In this document: piece by piece, positions 1,174 to 10,598 of the stretch
How the letters are laid out: every line of letters starts with the position of its first letter
How positions within the stretch are numbered: the stretch's first letter is position 1
Origin: a virus
Lineage: Duplodnaviria; Heunggongvirae; Uroviricota; Caudoviricetes
Length of the DNA: 10,598 nt
IMG/VR virus record: IMGVR_UViG_2778261346_000012
Reading direction: 5' to 3' (one strand)
Notes under the pieces: model-generated
Told to the model about the DNA's origin: nothing
Database searches by the model: none
The model's input: only the letters and a program-made list of their open reading frames with translations
Position numbers and translations under genes: made by a program

Positions 1174-3045
1174 ATGACTTATTTTACTAACACAGCAGTA
1201 AATATCGAAGGAAACAGAAAGTTAAGAACTCCTCAAATCGAGGCCTATATAAAAATAAGGGAGTTTTTCAGCGACCCTGAGCACCGTGAAGCTCTTGTGA
1301 TTCTACCTACAGGCACAGGTAAAAGTGGGTTAATTTCTATTGCACCATACGGTGTATCTCAAAAAAGAGTTTTGATTATTACACCAGGTCTTGTTACCAA
1401 AGATAGTATTAGAAAGACACAAGAAGTATTAGAAGATAACTTTTGGATAAATTATGACATTGTCTTCAGCAGTAAAGATATTCCTGTAGTTAGTGAATAT
1501 ACACCAGATATATCTTCTGAACACTTAGAACAAAGCCACATTATATTTTCTAATATACAACGTATATCTGGAAATAGAAAAAGCGCACTAATTAATAGAG
1601 TTCCAGAAGATTTCTTTGATTTTATTATCGTTGATGAAGCACATCATGCACCAGCCCAAAGCTGGCGTGATGCTCTTAAATATTTCTCTAAAGCAAAAGT
1701 TTTACATGTCACAGGAACCCCTTATCGTGGTGATGCTCAAGAAATCCCGGGAGAAATAATTCATGAAACACCATTGTCAGAAGTGATGAGAGCAAAATAT
1801 GTAAAATGGTTAAGAAAAGAAACTGTTAATGCTCATGAGTTGTACTTCACAACTCCAGATATACCTAACAAAAAACTAACTAAAGAAGATATTTTAGAAT
1901 TTAAAGATAAAGAATGGATTGAAAAAAGCATTGCCCTATCTCCGGAGTGTTCAAATGATGTGATTGAGCATAGTATTTTAAAACTAAATATACTTAAAGA
2001 AGCATCACCTAAAGTCCCACATAAAATTCTCGCTGTAGGATGTAGCATTACTCATGCCGAAGATCTAGCTAAATGGTATGAAGCAAAAGGTCTACGTGTA
2101 GTTATAATTCATAGTGAAATGGATGATGAAGTAAAAGCAGACGCTTTCCTTAACATTGAAAATCATAACGCCGATGTTGTTATATCGGTAAATATGTTAA
2201 TGGAGGGCTATGACCATAAGTATTTAAGCATTTTGGCAATCTTCAGACCTTACAGGAGCCTTAATGCATTTGCTCAAGTTGTTGGCAGAATTCTACGTGC
2301 GATTCCTGAAAACGAGATTACTGCATTTGAAATAGATAATAATGGAATTGTGATTTTTCATGAAGAAATTGGATTAAATCCAATGTGGGAAAAATTCCAG
2401 AGCGAAGTAGATAGAGCCAAAAGAACCATCAATCGAGAATATACATTTACTGATGATTATTATAGAGAAAGAGAAAACTTTTTGGCTGGTGTCGCAAGTG
2501 ATGGGGCTTACGTCAGTGATCAAGATTCTTATTTAGAAGATGTTGATTTTAACTCTTTATTCGAAGAAAAAAGAGCTGAAATAAACAAAAAAGTTGATGA
2601 ACAATTAGAAATATTCAGGAAGGCAAGTCTTGATGCAGGATTAACGTTACCTGATGACACTCTGAAATTGTTTAAAAGAGACTTAATTGAACAAGAATCT
2701 AGGAAAGCTGCTGGAGAAATAGATCAAGATCTAGTAGAAAAAAGGCCGCATCTTGCTCGTAAAAAAATGAGAGAGATCTTAACCGCTAAGATTAAAGAAG
2801 AGGCTTCTAACCTTCTGATAATAAATGGCCTCGATGAGAAAGGACAAGAACTGCAACCTATTTTTTCACCACATCTTAGGAATCTACAGACAACCGATGC
2901 AAATGATGCTATTATTGTAAAATTCATTTTGGGTAAATTGTATAGACAGTTTGGTCCTGTAAAAGATCGAGACAACCAAACTTTACAGAACTCAATTAAT
3001 TCAATACCTGAGATCTTAGCTGAAGTGTCGAGGATGTTAAAATGA
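1174..3045 (+). CDS. SF2 DEAD/DEAH-box (ResIII-like) helicase-family protein with ~240-aa C-terminal extension of unknown function; candidate defence protein
   Basis: 623-aa ORF. AGGAG RBS at 1164-1168, ATG at 1174, 9 bp after the int stop. Helicase motifs in order: PTGTGKSG (Walker A / motif I), IIVDEAHH (DEAH, motif II), VTGTP (motif III), SVNMLMEGYD (motif V-like), QVVGRILR (motif VI). C-terminal third is charged and low-complexity with no nuclease or other motif I recognise. AT-rich codon usage unlike the satellite core. Confidence 0.9.
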   Translation: MTYFTNTAVNIEGNRKLRTPQIEAYIKIREFFSDPEHREALVILPTGTGKSGLISIAPYGVSQKRVLIITPGLVTKDSIRKTQEVLEDNFWINYDIVFSSKDIPVVSEYTPDISSEHLEQSHIIFSNIQRISGNRKSALINRVPEDFFDFIIVDEAHHAPAQSWRDALKYFSKAKVLHVTGTPYRGDAQEIPGEIIHETPLSEVMRAKYVKWLRKETVNAHELYFTTPDIPNKKLTKEDILEFKDKEWIEKSIALSPECSNDVIEHSILKLNILKEASPKVPHKILAVGCSITHAEDLAKWYEAKGLRVVIIHSEMDDEVKADAFLNIENHNADVVISVNMLMEGYDHKYLSILAIFRPYRSLNAFAQVVGRILRAIPENEITAFEIDNNGIVIFHEEIGLNPMWEKFQSEVDRAKRTINREYTFTDDYYRERENFLAGVASDGAYVSDQDSYLEDVDFNSLFEEKRAEINKKVDEQLEIFRKASLDAGLTLPDDTLKLFKRDLIEQESRKAAGEIDQDLVEKRPHLARKKMREILTAKIKEEASNLLIINGLDEKGQELQPIFSPHLRNLQTTDANDAIIVKFILGKLYRQFGPVKDRDNQTLQNSINSIPEILAEVSRMLK

Positions 3046-3464
3046 TTAATGTAGCTCAAATTTTGAAAAATTTAGCTGCCTTTTGTTCAGTCAAGGGAGT
3101 TCAACCTGATGAACTTGTGACCGCTATATTTGAAAAAGAATATAAAAAAATTGAAACATACAAGGTCAATTGTCTTATTTATTTCATCATGGATTACTCC
3201 GAAAAAATTGATGATGATGAAACATTTATTTCTATGCGTTATATTTATGACGAGAATAAATCACTTATAAAAATAGAACAAAAGCTAAACAATGGACGTT
3301 ATCATACCCAGTGGGACAGAAATGACGCACTGAAGAAATATATAATAAATCAACTTTCTGAACTTCCATATCAGAAAAGAGACGAGGTCTATCAGACAAT
3401 TTTAGAAAATATACCTATTGATGCAAGTTACTCCTTACCTCCAAGGCTAAAGCTTGTTAGCTAA
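3042..3464 (+). CDS. Hypothetical 140-aa protein, translationally coupled partner of the helicase
   Basis: ATG at 3042 overlaps the helicase TGA stop (ATGA, 3042-3045). GAGGA RBS at 3030-3034. Same AT-rich composition. Followed directly by an intrinsic terminator. No motif recognised by eye. Confidence 0.75.
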   Translation: MINVAQILKNLAAFCSVKGVQPDELVTAIFEKEYKKIETYKVNCLIYFIMDYSEKIDDDETFISMRYIYDENKSLIKIEQKLNNGRYHTQWDRNDALKKYIINQLSELPYQKRDEVYQTILENIPIDASYSLPPRLKLVS

Positions 3465-4347: not shown

Positions 4348-4420
4348 CGTTATCTCTTTCTCATCATGCTGAAGAATAAAAATACGGTGTGCGGCGACGG
4401 CCGGGGTTAACCGGCAGCCT

Positions 4421-4921
4421 TCATTCCAGACGCAGCGAATATGATTGTGTTTTTAACCGTACTGGCGGCAGTTCCTGTTTTTCATGCAGGCGTTCTGCCA
4501 GTTCGTCCGGCGTGACCGGGCGGACAATGAAGCGGGTGATGGTCTGAAGCGTTTTAAACACCAGACCACAGCCCGGATCCGTGCACACATAAAAACGCTC
4601 GGTGACTTCCTGAGACAGACGCCGCGATGTTCTTGACAGTGCAAGGCCTTTACATCTCCGACAACAATATCCGGTAACAAGCATTCTTTTCGGGCGTTTC
4701 ATACTGCCGGAGGCTGACGTCAGTGAATCGCGGTATCTCTGTTTGCCTGAAATGTATTCCATTCCTGAATCTTTACAGTCAGAGAAAAAGCTTTCACTCG
4801 CTTCAAATGTCGCAGAGCAATAAATATTCCGGCACTGTGCAATCATTATCTTGGTGCCATCGTCCATGAAATGTGCGCGACGGGTGTGAGCAACATGTCC
4901 ACACGACGGGCAGTAAATCAT
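4421..4921 (-). CDS. delta: Delta, late-gene transcriptional activator (tandem Ogr-like zinc-finger domains)
   Basis: Chosen start is the internal ATG at 4921-4919 (MIYCPSCGH...), giving 166 aa, the P4 Delta length. It overlaps the sid TGA stop (ATGA) and has a GAGGA RBS about 10 nt upstream. The ORF-track start at 4978 is a GTG that would overlap sid by 60 nt. Two Ogr-like Cys clusters are present: CPSCGH...C..C and CCRRC...C..C. Confidence 0.88.
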   Translation of the reverse strand: MIYCPSCGHVAHTRRAHFMDDGTKIMIAQCRNIYCSATFEASESFFSDCKDSGMEYISGKQRYRDSLTSASGSMKRPKRMLVTGYCCRRCKGLALSRTSRRLSQEVTERFYVCTDPGCGLVFKTLQTITRFIVRPVTPDELAERLHEKQELPPVRLKTQSYSLRLE

Positions 4922-6101: not shown

Positions 6102-6203
6102 AATCCCCCCTGTTGCGTCTGCCAAAAATATTCACAAAATAAAGCGCTACCCGAAGCCGGACGGACTTATCCGGTGCTGTATGGACATTAACGAGGTAGC
6201 CCG

Positions 6204-6470
6204 ATGCAAGCTGTTTTTTCTTCCCCGTCTCCCGCCCCTGTGACGCCACTGATGCCGCTGCCGGACATCACGCAGGAGCGTTTTTTACGTCTGCCGGAAG
6301 TGATGCACCTGTGCGGCCTGTCACGCTCGACCATCTATGAACTCATCCGTAAGGGGGAATTTCCGCCGCAGGTGAGTCTTGGCGGTAAAAATGTGGCCTG
6401 GCTGCACTCTGAAGTCACCGCATGGATGGCCGGCCGCATTGCCGGACGCAAACGGGGGTATGACGCATGA
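6204..6470 (+). CDS. vis: Vis, AlpA-family helix-turn-helix regulator / excision factor (P4 orf88)
   Basis: 88-aa ORF, GAGG RBS 7 nt upstream of ATG 6204. AlpA-like core [30 protein letters not shown]. Stop overlaps the eta start (ATGA). Confidence 0.85.
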
Positions 6471-7066
6471 TGATGCCCGCTCTGCAAAAACTCCCTTTTT
6501 CTGGCTTGCCTTTTTCCGGCATTTGCGGATATAGTCTTTCCGTTGCCGCAAAATCGGCAGCCGGGCGTGAGAACCCGTGTAGCTCGAAGGCGACATATGA
6601 CGCGCCATGCGTCTTTTTTTGTGTCGCAATCAATGCCACAGAGCGCCAGATTATGGTGTGGTGTGTGGTCAGTCGTGCAGATGGCATTCCGTGCATCCTG
6701 CCTGCGTCCGCTCATTATGCCGCAGAGTCAATGGTAGCTCAGGCGGGGCAGCCTCCGGGCTGGCCGGTATTCTTCGAGGCCGGTATTCTCACCCCCGTCT
6801 GGGCTATCGCCATCGAGCGTGAGAACTCCGGCGATAGCAGTTATTTGCTACTCGAAGGAGGCTGCCTTATGGCTACAACCCTTACCCCCTCACACCCTGA
6901 ATTTGTCTTTGTGTTTGCGGCTGTCCGTCGCGCAGACCGTCATCCCCGTATCTGTATGCTTCGCACCGTCGCCGGTGATGAACGCAGTGCCCGCCGTTCC
7001 CTTGTCCGTGACTATGTGCTCTCCCTTGCTGCCCGTCTGCCGGTGGTGGAGGTGTCCCGTGCGTAA
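6467..7066 (+). CDS. eta: Eta (P4 orf199); reading frame spans PLE, the cI RNA region and the nested kil gene
   Basis: 199-codon ORF beginning with three consecutive ATGs (6467-6475). This fits my recollection of P4 eta as 197-199 aa with three candidate start codons. Whether the whole frame is translated is uncertain because an RNA gene and promoter lie inside it. Confidence 0.6.
6506..6535 (+). promoter_or_regulatory. PLE, candidate constitutive sigma70 early promoter
   Basis: -35 TTGCCT (6506-6511), 18-bp spacer, -10 TATAGT (6530-6535). Predicted TSS near 6542, just upstream of seqA. Confidence 0.5.
6565..6590 (+). promoter_or_regulatory. seqA-like immunity target in the PLE leader
   Basis: GCGTGAGAAC...CTCGAAGG. 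Both blocks are complementary to the seqB core inside the predicted CI RNA (CTTCGAG...TTCTCAC at 6772-6792) and recur at 6817-6858. Confidence 0.5.
6737..6804 (+). ncRNA. cI: CI immunity RNA (P4 cI / C4-type antisense RNA), boundaries approximate
   Basis: A 12-bp closing stem (GCTCAGGCGGGG 6737-6748 pairs with CCCCGTCTGGGC 6793-6804, including 2 G-U pairs) encloses about 44 nt that contain the seqB-like segment complementary to the upstream and downstream targets. About 68 nt, close to the ~69-nt size I recall for P4 CI RNA. Lies between PLE and kil as in P4. Confidence 0.5.
6817..6858 (+). promoter_or_regulatory. seqC-like immunity target overlapping the kil translation initiation region
   Basis: GCGTGAGAAC (6817-6826) and CTCGAAGG (6851-6858) repeat the seqA blocks. 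The second block overlaps the kil RBS AAGGAGG (6855-6861). Confidence 0.5.
6869..7066 (+). CDS. kil: Kil, 65-aa protein nested in-frame in the 3' end of eta
   Basis: In-frame ATG at 6869 with an AAGGAGG RBS 7 nt upstream gives exactly 65 codons to the shared TAA stop. Matches my recollection of P4 kil as a 65-aa product and the first translated gene downstream of PLE. Confidence 0.6.
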
Positions 7067-7346
7067 TAAAAAAGCCCCTCAGACCGTCTCAGCGCGTCAT
7101 GACGCCCGTGAACACCTCAGCATTGAGGCTTACCATAAGCTCAACCGCGCCAGCGCCGTATCCCAGTTTGTTGGGGGTGATTTGATTCACCGTGAACTCT
7201 CCGGCCTGCATCAGCTCTACATTCCGCATATTTTCAGCTACCTGAATGAAGATATTGATTTTGTGCTGAATGAACTGAAAGCCAAAGGCCTGTGCCGCGA
7301 TTTTCTCGCCCAGCAGAAAGACCGGGGAGACAGGACGCATGTTTGA
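7059..7346 (+). CDS. epsilon: Epsilon, helper-prophage derepressor (anti-repressor of the P2 C repressor)
   Basis: GTG start at 7059 with a GGAGG RBS (7048-7052) 6 nt upstream, overlapping the eta/kil stop. 95 codons to TGA 7344-7346, matching the ~95 aa I recall for P4 epsilon. The ORF-track frame extends upstream to 6819 but overlaps kil and lacks a convincing start there. Stop overlaps the orf151 ATG. Confidence 0.55.
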
Positions 7347-7794
7347 TTTTCCCCAGCCCGGTGAGATTTACCGTTCTGCCGGTTTTCCCGATGTGGCCGT
7401 GGTCGGCATTCTGGAAGACGGTATTCCGTGGGAAATGCCGTACCGCTGCCCGGAAATTGTCTGGAACCCGTACCGCCGTAAATTCAGTATCCTTGTGCGT
7501 ATCCTCGCTGACGGACGCACCACAGACATCCCGCTGGGGCGTTTTCTGCGGGAATTTACCTGTGACCGTCCTGACCTGTTTAAACGCAGCCCCGTAAACC
7601 GGCATGCGGTACTGAAAGAAATGGCCGGAGACCCGGAATTACAGAAATGGCGGGAAAAATATCTGGATATTTACCCGCAGGACACTGTTCCGGTCAGCCG
7701 GGCAGCACCGGTGGCGCGGGAATGGCGGGAAATTCCCCGCACGGAGCCTGACCCGGAAACCACCCCGGATAACAGTTACCGCAATTATCTGTAA
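7339..7794 (+). CDS. Conserved P4 left-operon protein (orf151 equivalent), function unknown
   Basis: 151-aa ORF, ATG start overlapping the epsilon stop. Size and position match P4 orf151 as I recall it. Confidence 0.75.
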   Translation: MFDFPQPGEIYRSAGFPDVAVVGILEDGIPWEMPYRCPEIVWNPYRRKFSILVRILADGRTTDIPLGRFLREFTCDRPDLFKRSPVNRHAVLKEMAGDPELQKWREKYLDIYPQDTVPVSRAAPVAREWREIPRTEPDPETTPDNSYRNYL

Positions 7795-7929
7795 TTAAAA
7801 AACGACCCCCGAAAAATTAAATGTGCGTATTCGCGCAGGGATACGCACGTCTTCAGGAGACGCAGATATGCCTTATCAGTTAATGCAACCGGCACGGAAT
7901 GCAGTCATCTGTCACAGGGAGAAAAGCAA

Positions 7930-8250
7930 ATGAAAACACCCTTACCGCCCGTCTTACGCGCTGCCCTTTACCGTCGCGCTGTCGCCTGTGCCTGGCTGAC
8001 CGTGTGCGAACGTCAGCACCGCTACCCGCATCTCACCCTTGAGTCACTGGAGGCGGCCATCGCCGCTGAGCTGGAAGGCTTTTATCTGCGCCAGCACGGT
8101 GAGGAAAAAGGGCGTCAGATAGCCTGTGCCCTGCTGGAAGATTTAATGGAATCCGGCCCCCTGAAGGCCGCGCCGTCGCTGTCCTTTCTCGGGCTGGTTG
8201 TGATGGATGAACTCTGTGCCCGTCACATAAAAGCGCCGGTACTGCACTGA
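7930..8250 (+). CDS. Conserved P4 left-operon protein (orf106 equivalent), function unknown
   Basis: 106-aa ORF, AGGGAG RBS 8 nt upstream of ATG 7930. Immediately upstream of alpha. Confidence 0.7.
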
Positions 8251-8264
8251 AGGAGAACAACACC

Positions 8265-10598
8265 ATGAAAATGAACGTAACCGCCACCGTCAGCCATGCG
8301 CTCGGCCACTGGCCGCGTATTCTCCCGGCGCTGGGGATTCAGGTGCTGAAAAACCGTCATCAGCCCTGTCCGGTCTGTGGCGGGAGTGACCGCTTCCGTT
8401 TTGATGACAGGGAGGGGCGCGGCACCTGGTACTGCAATCAGTGTGGTGCCGGTGACGGCCTGAAACTGGTTGAAAAGGTGTTTGGTGTTTCCCCGTCCGA
8501 CGCGGCCGCAAAGGTGGCTGCCGTGACCGGCAGCCTGCCCACGGCTGACCCGGCAGTGACGGCCGCCGCCGGCGCTGAAACAGACGCTGCCCGGAAGAAC
8601 GCCGCCGCACTGGCACAAACCCTGATGGCAAAAACCCGTCCCGGAACCGGTAACGCCTACCTGACCCGCAAGGGCTTTCCCGGCCGGGAATGCCGGATGC
8701 TGACCGGCACACACAGAGCCGGTGGCGTGAGCTGGCGCGCCGGTGACCTTGTGGTGCCACTGTATGACGACAGCGGCGAACTGGTTAACCTTCAGTTAAT
8801 CAGTGCTGACGGCCGTAAGCGCACCCTGAAAGGCGGACAGGTCAGGGGCACCTGTCACACCCTTGAAGGACAGAATCAGGCCGGAAAACGTCTGTGGATA
8901 GCGGAGGGATACGCGACCGCACTTACCGTACATCACCTGACCGGTGAAACGGTGATGGTGGCGCTTTCTTCCGTGAACCTCCTTTCTCTGGCCAGCCTTG
9001 CCCGGCAGAAGCATCCGGCCTGTCAGATTGTCCTTGCCGCAGACCGTGACCTCAGCGGTGACGGCCAGAAAAAAGCCGCCGCAGCCGCAGATGCGTGTGA
9101 GGGCGTTGTTGCCCTGCCGCCGGTCTTCGGTGACTGGAATGATGCCTTCACGCAGTACGGCGGGGAAGCCACCCGTAAGGCCATTTATGATGCCATCCGG
9201 CCACCGGCTGAAAGCCCGTTCGACACCATGAGCGAAGCGGAGTTTTCCGCCATGAGTACCAGCGAAAAGGCCATGCGTATCTATGAGCATTACGGCGAGG
9301 CGCTCGCGGTCGATGCCAACGGCCAGCTTCTGTCCCGCTATGAAAATGGTGTCTGGAAGGTGCTGCCGCCACAGGACTTTGCCCGGGATGTGGCCGGGCT
9401 GTTTCAGCGTCTGCGCGCGCCGTTCTCCTCCGGGAAAGTGGCCTCCGTGGTGGACACCCTGAAGCTGATTATTCCGCAGCAGGAAGCCCCCTCCCGCCGC
9501 CTGATTGGCTTTCGTAACGGCGTGCTCGACACGCAGAACGGCACGTTCCACCCGCACAGTCCGTCACACTGGATGCGCACCCTGTGCGATGTGGATTTCA
9601 CCCCGCCGGTGGACGGTGAAACGCTGGAGACCCACGCCCCCGCGTTCTGGCGCTGGCTTGACCGTGCCGCCGGTGGCCGTGCGGAAAAACGCGACGTGAT
9701 TCTGGCCGCACTGTTTATGGTGCTGGCAAACCGCTACGACTGGCAGCTCTTTCTGGAGGTGACCGGTCCCGGCGGCAGCGGCAAAAGTATCATGGCCGAA
9801 ATAGCCACCCTGCTGGCCGGGGAGGATAACGCCACGTCGGCCACCATTGAGACGCTGGAATCCCCGCGTGAACGTGCCGCGTTAACTGGCTTCTCACTGA
9901 TACGCCTGCCGGACCAGGAAAAATGGAGCGGCGACGGAGCCGGACTCAAGGCTATCACCGGCGGCGATGCGGTGTCCGTTGACCCGAAATACCGGGATGC
10001 GTACTCCACGCATATCCCGGCGGTGATTCTGGCCGTGAACAATAACCCGATGCGCTTCACCGACCGCAGCGGCGGCGTGTCACGCCGGCGGGTGATTATT
10101 CACTTCCCGGAACAGATAGCCCCGCAGGAGCGCGACCCGCAGCTTAAGGACAAAATCACCCGCGAGCTGGCGGTCATCGTGCGTCACCTGATGCAGAAGT
10201 TCAGCGACCCGATGCTCGCCCGGTCACTGCTTCAGTCCCAGCAGAACTCAGACGAGGCACTGAACATCAAACGGGATGCCGACCCGACGTTTGATTTTAT
10301 CGGCTATCTGGAAACCCTGCCGCAGACCAGCGGCATGTATATGGGGAACGCCAGTATCATCCCGCGTAATTACCGTAAATACCTCTATCACGCCTATCTG
10401 GCCTACATGGAGGCAAACGGCTACCGGAATGTACTCAGTCTGAAAATGTTCGGGCTGGGGCTGCCGGTGATGCTGAAGGAATACGGACTGAATTACGAGA
10501 AGCGCCATACCAAACAGGGGATACAGACCAACCTGACACTGAAAGAGGAAAGCTACGGCGACTGGCTGCCAAAATGTGACGCCCCTGCAACAACCTGA
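8265..10598 (+). CDS. alpha: Alpha, multifunctional primase-helicase replication protein
   Basis: 777-aa ORF, the P4 alpha length. AGGAG RBS 9 nt upstream. N-terminal zinc ribbon CPVCGGSDRFRFDD...YCNQCG. Primase/TOPRIM-like WIAEGYATALTV and LAADRDLSGDGQ. Walker A VTGPGGSGKS in the helicase domain. C-terminal region is expected to bind the iterons. Confidence 0.95.
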   Translation: MKMNVTATVSHALGHWPRILPALGIQVLKNRHQPCPVCGGSDRFRFDDREGRGTWYCNQCGAGDGLKLVEKVFGVSPSDAAAKVAAVTGSLPTADPAVTAAAGAETDAARKNAAALAQTLMAKTRPGTGNAYLTRKGFPGRECRMLTGTHRAGGVSWRAGDLVVPLYDDSGELVNLQLISADGRKRTLKGGQVRGTCHTLEGQNQAGKRLWIAEGYATALTVHHLTGETVMVALSSVNLLSLASLARQKHPACQIVLAADRDLSGDGQKKAAAAADACEGVVALPPVFGDWNDAFTQYGGEATRKAIYDAIRPPAESPFDTMSEAEFSAMSTSEKAMRIYEHYGEALAVDANGQLLSRYENGVWKVLPPQDFARDVAGLFQRLRAPFSSGKVASVVDTLKLIIPQQEAPSRRLIGFRNGVLDTQNGTFHPHSPSHWMRTLCDVDFTPPVDGETLETHAPAFWRWLDRAAGGRAEKRDVILAALFMVLANRYDWQLFLEVTGPGGSGKSIMAEIATLLAGEDNATSATIETLESPRERAALTGFSLIRLPDQEKWSGDGAGLKAITGGDAVSVDPKYRDAYSTHIPAVILAVNNNPMRFTDRSGGVSRRRVIIHFPEQIAPQERDPQLKDKITRELAVIVRHLMQKFSDPMLARSLLQSQQNSDEALNIKRDADPTFDFIGYLETLPQTSGMYMGNASIIPRNYRKYLYHAYLAYMEANGYRNVLSLKMFGLGLPVMLKEYGLNYEKRHTKQGIQTNLTLKEESYGDWLPKCDAPATT

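Follow-up and report, generated by a model that had tools for sequence, protein, structure and literature searches.

Evidence for a P4-type CI RNA immunity module with a non-P4 specificity loop in a P4-like prophage

What lies in front of the kil gene of a P4-like prophage when its database label speaks only of a protein? The question is raised by positions 6471-7066 of the IMG/VR virus record IMGVR_UViG_2778261346_000012, a stretch of 10,598 nucleotides (nt) that was analysed at full length and is called the window here. The RefSeq label for this interval is a 199-amino-acid (aa) 'Icd-like protein' and nothing else. The original prediction, made from the letters of the window, had read the same interval as an immunity system of the phage P4 type, in which a small structured CI RNA faces complementary targets upstream and downstream of itself. 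We are highly confident that a P4-like satellite prophage has its RNA immunity module in this interval, and the label should read CI/C4-type immunity RNA with its targets. The system is of a known kind and its mechanism is already established; this member is distinct from the copy in P4 because the specificity loop of the RNA and both targets of that loop have been switched. Four points go beyond the prediction: the allele is not that of P4, the stem and the RNA are longer, a direct repeat in the RNA is incidental, and the region lies within the open reading frame (ORF) eta.

Identity and layout of the immunity region

A scan of the whole window at the Rfam gathering thresholds returned three matches, all on the + strand. 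The C4 antisense RNA family (RF01695) matched at 6727-6814 with 74.3 bits against a threshold of 45 (E 2e-13, model positions 1-87 of 87), isrK (RF01394) at 6542-6619 with 65.5 bits against 50, and c4-a1b1 (RF03163) at 6529-6581 with 50.3 bits against 46.7. A search with the C4 family was the check by which the prediction was to stand or fall, and the match is full-length. IsrK and C4 homologues correspond to the 'seqA' and the 'CI RNA' of the P4 literature (Barquist et al. 2013, PMC3632133). In P4, an untranslated transcript is the source from which the CI RNA is processed; pairing of this RNA with seqA and with seqC leads to premature termination (Hershko-Shalev et al. 2016, PMC4825925).

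The genomic setting agrees with that of P4. Nucleotide identity to P4 is 97.5% over 6200-7400 (7834-9034 of the P4 record X51522), and a prophage in E. coli O145 RM9154-C1 matches the window over its full length at 99.9% identity. The window is a complete P4-like prophage from int to alpha with the gene order of P4 (names after the annotation of that phage): int, helicase cargo, psu, delta, sid, ORF88/vis, immunity region, epsilon, orf151, orf106 and alpha. The immunity region is located between vis/ORF88 and epsilon-orf151-cnr-alpha on the alpha strand, as in P4. The 65-aa kil product is 100% identical to P4 Kil and matches the NCBIfam Icd-like model NF033153 with 76.1 bits; the Icd-like domain is restricted to the kil part of the longer ORF. 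Together with the covariation in 77 distinct relatives described below, these matches bear out the P4-type reading. The parts of the module are as follows, with positions in the window.

6506-6535, + strand: PLE-like sigma-70 promoter (TTGCCT, 18 nt, TATAGT), the sole promoter-like site in 6150-7150, which would drive the leader, the CI RNA and the kil operon
6542-6620, + strand: leader RNA (the 'seqA' RNA of P4, IsrK homologue), matched by isrK and c4-a1b1
6542-6548/6555-6561, + strand: first leader hairpin
6562-6565/6574-6577, + strand: second leader hairpin with a1 in its loop, 100% paired with one compensatory pair
6567-6573, + strand: target a1, GUGAGAA, complement of a' (7 pairs)
6583-6590, + strand: target b1, CUCGAAGG (in P4 UUCACAGG), complement of the loop b' (8 pairs), just 5' of the terminator
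6599-6620 (stem 6599-6613), + strand: intrinsic terminator from the terminator scan, stem GACGC/GCGUC and U7, the sole such site in 6150-7150
6727-6814, + strand: CI RNA gene (Rfam C4 match), with a putative mature RNA at 6733-6811
6732-6748/6793-6809, + strand: CI closing stem of 17 base pairs (bp)
6749-6753/6758-6762, + strand: CI hairpin 1
6763-6767/6780-6784, + strand: CI hairpin 2 with a 12-nt loop
6771-6778, + strand: b', the specificity loop of hairpin 2, UCUUCGAG (in P4 CCUGUGAA), pairing with b1 and b2
6786-6792, + strand: a', UUCUCAC, in the 8-nt single-stranded junction, pairing with a1 and a2 and the same in P4
6809-6812, + strand: tRNA-like 3' tail GCCA that follows the closing stem and has a discriminator-like base and CC
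6803-6811/6830-6838, + strand: downstream hairpin GCUAUCGCC/GGCGAUAGC of 9 bp with a2 in its 18-nt loop, with covariation
6819-6825, + strand: target a2, GUGAGAA (7 pairs)
6851-6858, + strand: target b2, CUCGAAGG (in P4 UUCACAGG; 8 pairs), overlapping the kil Shine-Dalgarno sequence
6857-6861, + strand: kil Shine-Dalgarno sequence GGAGG, with the kil ATG at 6869, 7 nt further
6869-7066, + strand: kil, 65 aa, Icd-like cell-division inhibitor, the first translated gene after PLE
6467-7066, + strand: eta-like ORF, 199 aa, with kil as its in-frame 3' end and ATGs at 6467, 6470 and 6473

Structure of the RNA and pairing with its targets

Folding of 6727-6814 gave -48 kcal/mol against -31.8 +/- 3.0 for shuffles (z -5.35), and the shorter segment 6733-6811 gave z -4.73, so the structured RNA that had been predicted is found on folding. 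The predicted 12-bp stem is present, formed by GCTCAGGCGGGG at 6737-6748 and CCCCGTCTGGGC at 6793-6804 and including two G.U pairs; it is part of a true closing stem of 17 bp. The element is likewise longer than the 68 nt originally given, either ~79 nt for the mature RNA that we infer at 6733-6811 or 88 nt for the Rfam match. These ends are proposed because the annotated ends of P1 C4 map onto the model at these positions. The 3' tail is (A/G)CC(A/C), with the CC invariant in 78 loci, and G6733 stands at the start of the stem. The CI RNA of P4 and C4 of P1/P7 are hairpin-type substrates of RNase P, recognised through their 3' ends (PMC5499578). The sequence prerequisites of such an excision are present in the window, and by analogy its CI RNA would be released in the same way.

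A 12-nt direct repeat, GGCCGGTATTCT, had also been pointed out within the RNA, and it does exist at 6762-6773 and 6778-6789. Only 2 of 78 related loci have it in exact form, which rules it out as a functional unit; it is an allele-specific coincidence that arises because the GCCGG/CCGGU stem is palindromic and the loop and the junction have similar starts.

The segments of the RNA that would meet the targets are at the expected places, CTTCGAG at 6772-6778 and TTCTCAC at 6786-6792. Their complements occur upstream and downstream, GTGAGAAC at 6567-6574 and 6819-6826 and CTCGAAGG at 6583-6590 and 6851-6858, and the last of these overlaps the ribosome-binding site of kil as had been stated. Pairing covers a core of 7 nt (GUGAGAA:UUCUCAC) and one of 8 nt (CUCGAAGG:UCUUCGAG, ending in a G.U pair); the last C of GTGAGAAC faces A6785 and is unpaired. 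Single sites of 7-8 nt are short, and one might therefore ask whether the complementarity comes from chance or low complexity. The window has exactly two copies of the composite motif GTGAGAAC-N(5-30)-CTCGAAGG, where 200 shuffles give an expectation of 0.00, and the sites keep fixed positions and covary in 77 loci; we give the chance explanation no weight.

Relatives were collected in two sets to follow the pairing through evolution: 30 IMG/VR loci, found with a pattern that leaves the loop free, and 80 loci on one-genome-per-species contigs from ~40 enterobacterial genera, reached through alpha proteins of 57-100% identity. A covariance model built on the Rfam structure was used to find the RNA in these relatives, and it placed the RNA upstream of alpha, on the alpha strand, in 75 of the 80 P4-like loci (62-112 bits). 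The parts of the RNA that vary coincide exactly with the hairpin-2 loop and the junction. Locus by locus, the 7-nt junction core has exact complements at a fixed upstream place and 3-5 nt 3' of the RNA; the 8-nt loop core has complements upstream and at +33 to +37, and the latter run into GGAG. All 30 intermolecular positions are paired when an RNA is set against its own flanks in 94 of 103 loci, as compared with 23 of 10,078 non-self combinations of RNA and flank. The mean number of paired positions is 29.8 of 30 for self and 23.2 of 30 for non-self.

Formal pair counts were made on a 78-locus alignment with 77 distinct rows, and are given as the percentage of cells paired and the number of pairs changed on both sides.

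Helix a1:a', 99.8%, 6 of 7 pairs
Helix b1:b', 98.7%, 6 of 8 pairs
Helix a':a2, 100%, 6 of 7 pairs
Helix b':b2, 99.2%, 6 of 8 pairs
Closing stem, 99.9%, 3 of 17 pairs
Hairpin 1, 100%, 4 of 5 pairs
Downstream hairpin, 99.1%, 3 of 9 pairs

In the closing stem nine more pairs are changed on one side, and the stem of hairpin 2 is invariant. When the partners were slid by 1-3 columns, pairing fell to 25-47% and the covariation score to 0.05-0.10, as against 0.37-0.49 for the unslid partners. The high pairing and its collapse in the slid controls mean that the pairings are under selection.

The downstream hairpin uses as its 5' strand the 3' strand of the CI closing stem, so that only one of the two structures can form at a time. 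From its sequence the downstream hairpin could be a switch for processing or termination, possibly the 't4' of P4. Counterparts of this hairpin were seen in N15 (L113, 1141-1179) and, shorter, in P1 (L114, ~4410-4440). Between it and b2 a UAGCA/UGCUA hairpin (6835-6839/6846-6850) is 73.7% paired on the alignment, a figure lowered by a gap shift; counted free of the alignment, a hairpin of at least 5 bp is present in 68 of 77 loci. The minimum free energy fold also suggested a pairing of CUCC at 6826-6829, just 3' of a2, with GGAG at 6857-6860 of the kil Shine-Dalgarno sequence. It is compatible with 93.5% of cells, the Shine-Dalgarno sequence being invariant and compensatory changes being absent, and it is a possible intrinsic mask of that site.

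Transcription signals, the proposed circuit and its rivals

The isrK match starts at 6542, 7 nt 3' of the promoter, whose -10 box (TATAGT/TACAGT) is conserved in the 78-locus alignment. In the same loci the terminator stem is 100% paired with one compensatory pair and its T-run is invariant. A constitutive-type promoter, a seqA leader and an intrinsic terminator are thus all found in the sequence ahead of cI, the promoter as a predicted one. By its position the leader terminator would correspond to t1 of P4.

Knowledge of P4, P1 and N15 suggests how these parts would work together. The constitutive PLE-like promoter at 6506-6535 would give a leader of 6542-6620 that carries a1 and b1 and ends at the intrinsic terminator. 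Read-through transcripts would hold the tRNA-like three-helix RNA (~6733-6811), from which RNase P and 3' trimming would make a stable CI RNA, exposing b' in the hairpin-2 loop and a' in the junction as short single-stranded segments. This RNA would act in trans by pairing with a2 and b2 and covering the kil Shine-Dalgarno sequence, so that kil would stay untranslated. The naked, C-rich kil RNA would then be subject to Rho termination before the replication genes (epsilon through alpha), and this would amount to prophage immunity. The C/G ratio is 1.7-1.9 at 6840-6939, in the 5' part of kil, where a Rho-loading site would lie. Pairing of the CI RNA with a1 and b1 would favour a stop at the leader terminator and thereby provide feedback on CI synthesis, and transcripts from an upstream late promoter would translate the eta ORF through the region and escape CI control.

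Several points weigh against this reading. The fold energies of the leader (z -1.04) and of the spacer (z -1.35) are not better than those of shuffles. For the leader terminator (t1) and for Rho (timm) the roles are presumed ones, after what Briani 2000 and Forti 1999 reportedly found. Part of the conservation of the region could be at the protein level, as the ORF across it is open and conserved. Finally, the covariation is equally compatible with pairing in trans and with intramolecular pairing in the same transcript. All partners are within 300 nt of one transcript, and the competition between the downstream hairpin and the CI closing stem shows that alternative cis structures exist. One may therefore suppose that a1/b1 or a2/b2 fold onto a'/b' in the nascent PLE transcript and form an attenuator or a processing switch without any free RNA acting in trans. 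We regard a function in cis only as very unlikely: the RNA bears the hallmarks of an excised RNase P product (the 17-bp closing stem, the invariant 3' CC and a very stable fold), C4 of P1 is annotated as a discrete 77-nt RNA, and the homologous RNA is described as a trans-acting immunity factor in P4, P1/P7 and N15 (PMC4825925; PMC12197685).

The protein-level argument deserves its own examination. The 199-aa eta-like ORF encloses the promoter, the leader, the terminator, the CI RNA and both target sets. In 59 of 67 loci its frame runs open over 330 nt or more ahead of kil; 7 other loci have a neighbouring frame open and no locus the third, and the alignment indels across the region keep the frame. 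The Pfam family Phage_ASH matches aa 22-146, the part that coincides with the RNA region, and RefSeq calls the whole ORF an Icd-like protein. The idea that this 199-aa 'Icd-like' ORF of PGAP is an over-call across RNA genes was ruled out by the frame conservation, the three ATGs and the in-frame kil. One could go to the other extreme and take the eta/'Ash'/Icd-like ORF as the sole product, with the RNA-like features as by-products of protein conservation. Such a protein-only explanation is hardly credible, as the double-sided compensatory changes join sites up to 220 nt apart and keep base pairs and not amino acids, three Rfam models match, the ORF encloses a promoter as well as an intrinsic terminator whose T7 run is invariant, and the Icd-like domain is limited to the kil part. 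The conservation behind Phage_ASH may itself be largely RNA-driven. The RNA and protein readings are probably compatible, the ORF being translated from upstream transcripts and the RNA functioning on PLE transcripts. This fits eta of P4, from which the name is taken: according to Forti et al. 1999, eta is reportedly translated from transcripts of the upstream late promoter only, and termination is prevented by this translation.

In a Pectobacterium/Dickeya group (L089, L091, L094, L095, L097, L098 and L099) the long ORF is in the +1 frame relative to the chosen kil start, with a 1-nt deletion near the ATG. This clade has either a different kil start or a different relation between the eta and kil frames.

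Other known systems share the architecture of the window and bear on how repression would be exerted. The c4 locus of P1/P7 (immI: c4-icd-ant), the founder of the Rfam C4 family, belongs to the same family and has the same layout, with a three-helix RNA between its upstream and downstream targets. The annotated order in P1 is a1 (7 nt), b1 (8 nt), the 77-nt c4, a2 (7 nt), b2 (8 nt, running into the icd Shine-Dalgarno sequence) and icd, with lengths and order as in the window, and the P1 sequence places a1 in a hairpin loop like a1 of the window. Rfam C4 and c4-a1b1 match P1 and isrK does not, and searches by similarity with the Kil protein or an Rfam C4 consensus BLAST probe did not reach P1, the similarity being too low. 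Differences in c4 underlie the heteroimmunity of P1 and P7 (PMC12197685). In P1, b2 is annotated as repressing icd-ant translation, and the antirepressor ant is under translational repression and a C1 operator; the operon of the window, in contrast, leads to replication genes and by analogy would be controlled by premature termination.

The linear plasmid prophages of the N15 type (N15, PY54, phiKO2) carry a secondary immunity locus in which a small processed RNA lies 5' of an icd-like gene and an antirepressor. N15 resembles the window in its isrK-like leader, its C4 RNA (78.8 bits), the place of b2 beside the Shine-Dalgarno sequence, an Icd/Kil homologue of 40-50% identity, the display of a2 in a hairpin (GCUACCACC/GGUGGUAGC), and a 'putative rho-indep. 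terminator' that is annotated at the place matching the leader terminator of the window. It differs in its a and b sequences, and in that the locus serves the antirepressor operon of a true temperate phage and not the replication operon of a satellite.

In Gifsy-1 of Salmonella (IsrK - orf45 - anrP, with STnc1160), IsrK is a structural homologue of the SeqA RNA of P4, and STnc1160 may act like CI (PMC4825925). The leader of the window belongs to this comparison through its isrK match of 65.5 bits. The short IsrK RNA of Gifsy-1 differs in that it activates translation of the long isoform in trans, and we know of no such trans-activating role for a P4-type leader.

These comparisons allow another account, in which CI-dependent termination plays no part and the RNA acts either by pure translational repression of icd/kil and the coupled genes, as in P1, or with a leader that is a trans regulator or a sponge for CI, as in Gifsy-1. 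It draws on b2, which overlaps the Shine-Dalgarno sequence exactly as in P1, on the isrK match of the leader and the action of Salmonella IsrK in trans on the long isoform (PMC4825925), and on the requirement for an IsrK-like element in P4-like prophages of S. Typhi (PMC3632133). We consider it unlikely, though not to the degree of the cis-only and protein-only explanations. The 97.5% identity makes the mechanism of P4 the default, and in P4 the CI RNA is reported to lead to premature termination (PMC4825925); moreover, Rho termination normally goes together with a block of translation, which makes the difference one of emphasis. Control by CI-dependent termination accordingly is kept as the preferred reading of the module.

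Allele switch relative to P4 and allele diversity

Alignment of the 461-nt region to P4 revealed few differences, clustered at three places, b1, b' and b2. Beside and in b1, ..GAGCAATTCACAGG of P4 is ..GTGTAGCTCGAAGG in the window, with a few further changes in the spacer adjoining b1; the hairpin-2 loop is TATCCTGTGAAG in P4 and TATTCTTCGAGG in the window, and the b2 region is CTATTCACAGGAGG and CTACTCGAAGGAGG, respectively. The pairing set of P4 is CCUGUGAA:UUCACAGG, that of the window UCUUCGAG:CUCGAAGG. With 5 of 8 nt different in b' and 4 of 8 in each b target, seqB, seqA and seqC are not identical to those of P4, whereas a', a1 and a2 are unchanged, as are the promoter, the leader, the terminator and the CI backbone. 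The window loop on the b target of P4 has two central mismatches. Duplex energies, summed over the four sites and based on the alignment, were as follows.

Window CI on window targets: -41.0 kcal/mol
P4 CI on P4 targets: -42.6 kcal/mol
Window CI on P4 targets: -19.6 kcal/mol
P4 CI on window targets: -27.4 kcal/mol
Family mean, self: -40.9 +/- 3.9 kcal/mol
Family mean, non-self: -16.5 +/- 8.4 kcal/mol

Because the b sites are switched together and the cross-duplex energies are about half of self, the element is predicted from its sequence to be wholly or partly heteroimmune to P4, or at least to show weakened cross-immunity. The a sites, 7 bp used twice and the same as in P4, tell the other way, and some cross-immunity may remain. 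Sabbattini et al. 1996 reportedly found the P4-like retronphage phiR73 to be heteroimmune to P4 on account of its seqA/B/C sequences; it would share with the window the concept of a new specificity, set on a P4-like backbone by a CI loop that covaries with its targets. Being near-isogenic to P4 in this region, with a clean 8-nt loop switch and matching targets, the window is a natural minimal test case for the pairing that RNA immunity and heteroimmunity need.

The window loop is one of several on the same type of backbone. Among the 30 IMG/VR loci the following loops were counted.

UCUUCGAG (window): 10 loci, targets matched
Loop of P4: 6 loci, targets matched
CCGUUAGA: 5 loci, targets matched
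CCGAUAAC: 4 loci, targets matched
UCGAUGGA: 3 loci, targets matched
CCUAUGAC: 2 loci, targets decayed

Among 5,426 complete E. coli genomes, which hold roughly 3,300 P4-like places, a loop-centred 52-mer of the window allele has matches in 249 (in 87 of them at >=99%) and that of the P4 allele in 277; the window allele is therefore common. No fewer than 18 b' loops and 6 a' junctions, in 36 combinations, were counted in the sampled loci. The order of the sites along the DNA is interleaved (a1, b1, b', a', a2, b2), which means that re-assortment needs several exchange patches or convergent evolution. The survey of the family indicates that the mechanism is conserved across Enterobacterales, with specificity set by two short segments that vary independently, and it leaves the known mechanism unchanged.

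It is possible that P4-like satellites, and by extension the C4 family, use a natural two-part combinatorial 'address code' for RNA immunity, an idea that we put forward tentatively and with some doubt. The two-part address extends the established precedent of heteroimmunity in P1/P7 and P4/phiR73, and a literature search found no description of a family-wide two-part a/b address. Were the idea true, the alleles would reflect frequency-dependent selection for heteroimmunity among satellites that share hosts and helpers, and they would offer a ready-made library of orthogonal pairs of RNA repressor and target. The window allele would then be one common address of E. coli, equal in frequency to that of P4, and mismatched hybrids would be intermediates in the re-assortment of addresses.

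One such hybrid is L030 (IMG/VR 2671181114_000016), which combines a window-type loop and b2 with a P4-type b1. The two loci with loop CCUAUGAC, L011 and L015, have a mismatched b1 and a degenerate b2. All three have the appearance of recombinants, of intermediates or of modules in decay. Free re-assortment of b' and a' alleles was also seen, loop CCAUUGAG being found with all six a' alleles.

The chromosomes NZ_CP028379.1 and NZ_CP027362.1 each have three P4-like places, located with the whole window, and two places that match the 52-mer of the window allele. Judged from these sequences, two elements of the same predicted immunity type may co-reside in one chromosome. Four short contigs assigned to Ferruginibacter, Clostridiales, 'bacterium' and Ruminococcus metagenome-assembled genomes (L033, L034, L035 and L068) carry an alpha that is 98-100% identical to that of the window element, and they are probably mis-binned enterobacterial or P4 DNA.

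Away from the immunity region, the helicase cargo at 1174-3464 lies between int and psu, where P4 has other genes. It consists of a 623-aa ResIII/DEAD helicase (Pfam ResIII, 82 bits), with weak PADLOC matches to type IV methyl-directed restriction enzymes, and of a 140-aa ORF that overlaps it and has no family match. The helicase and the 140-aa ORF could be a candidate two-gene anti-phage cargo, as yet uncharacterised, in the P4 hotspot.

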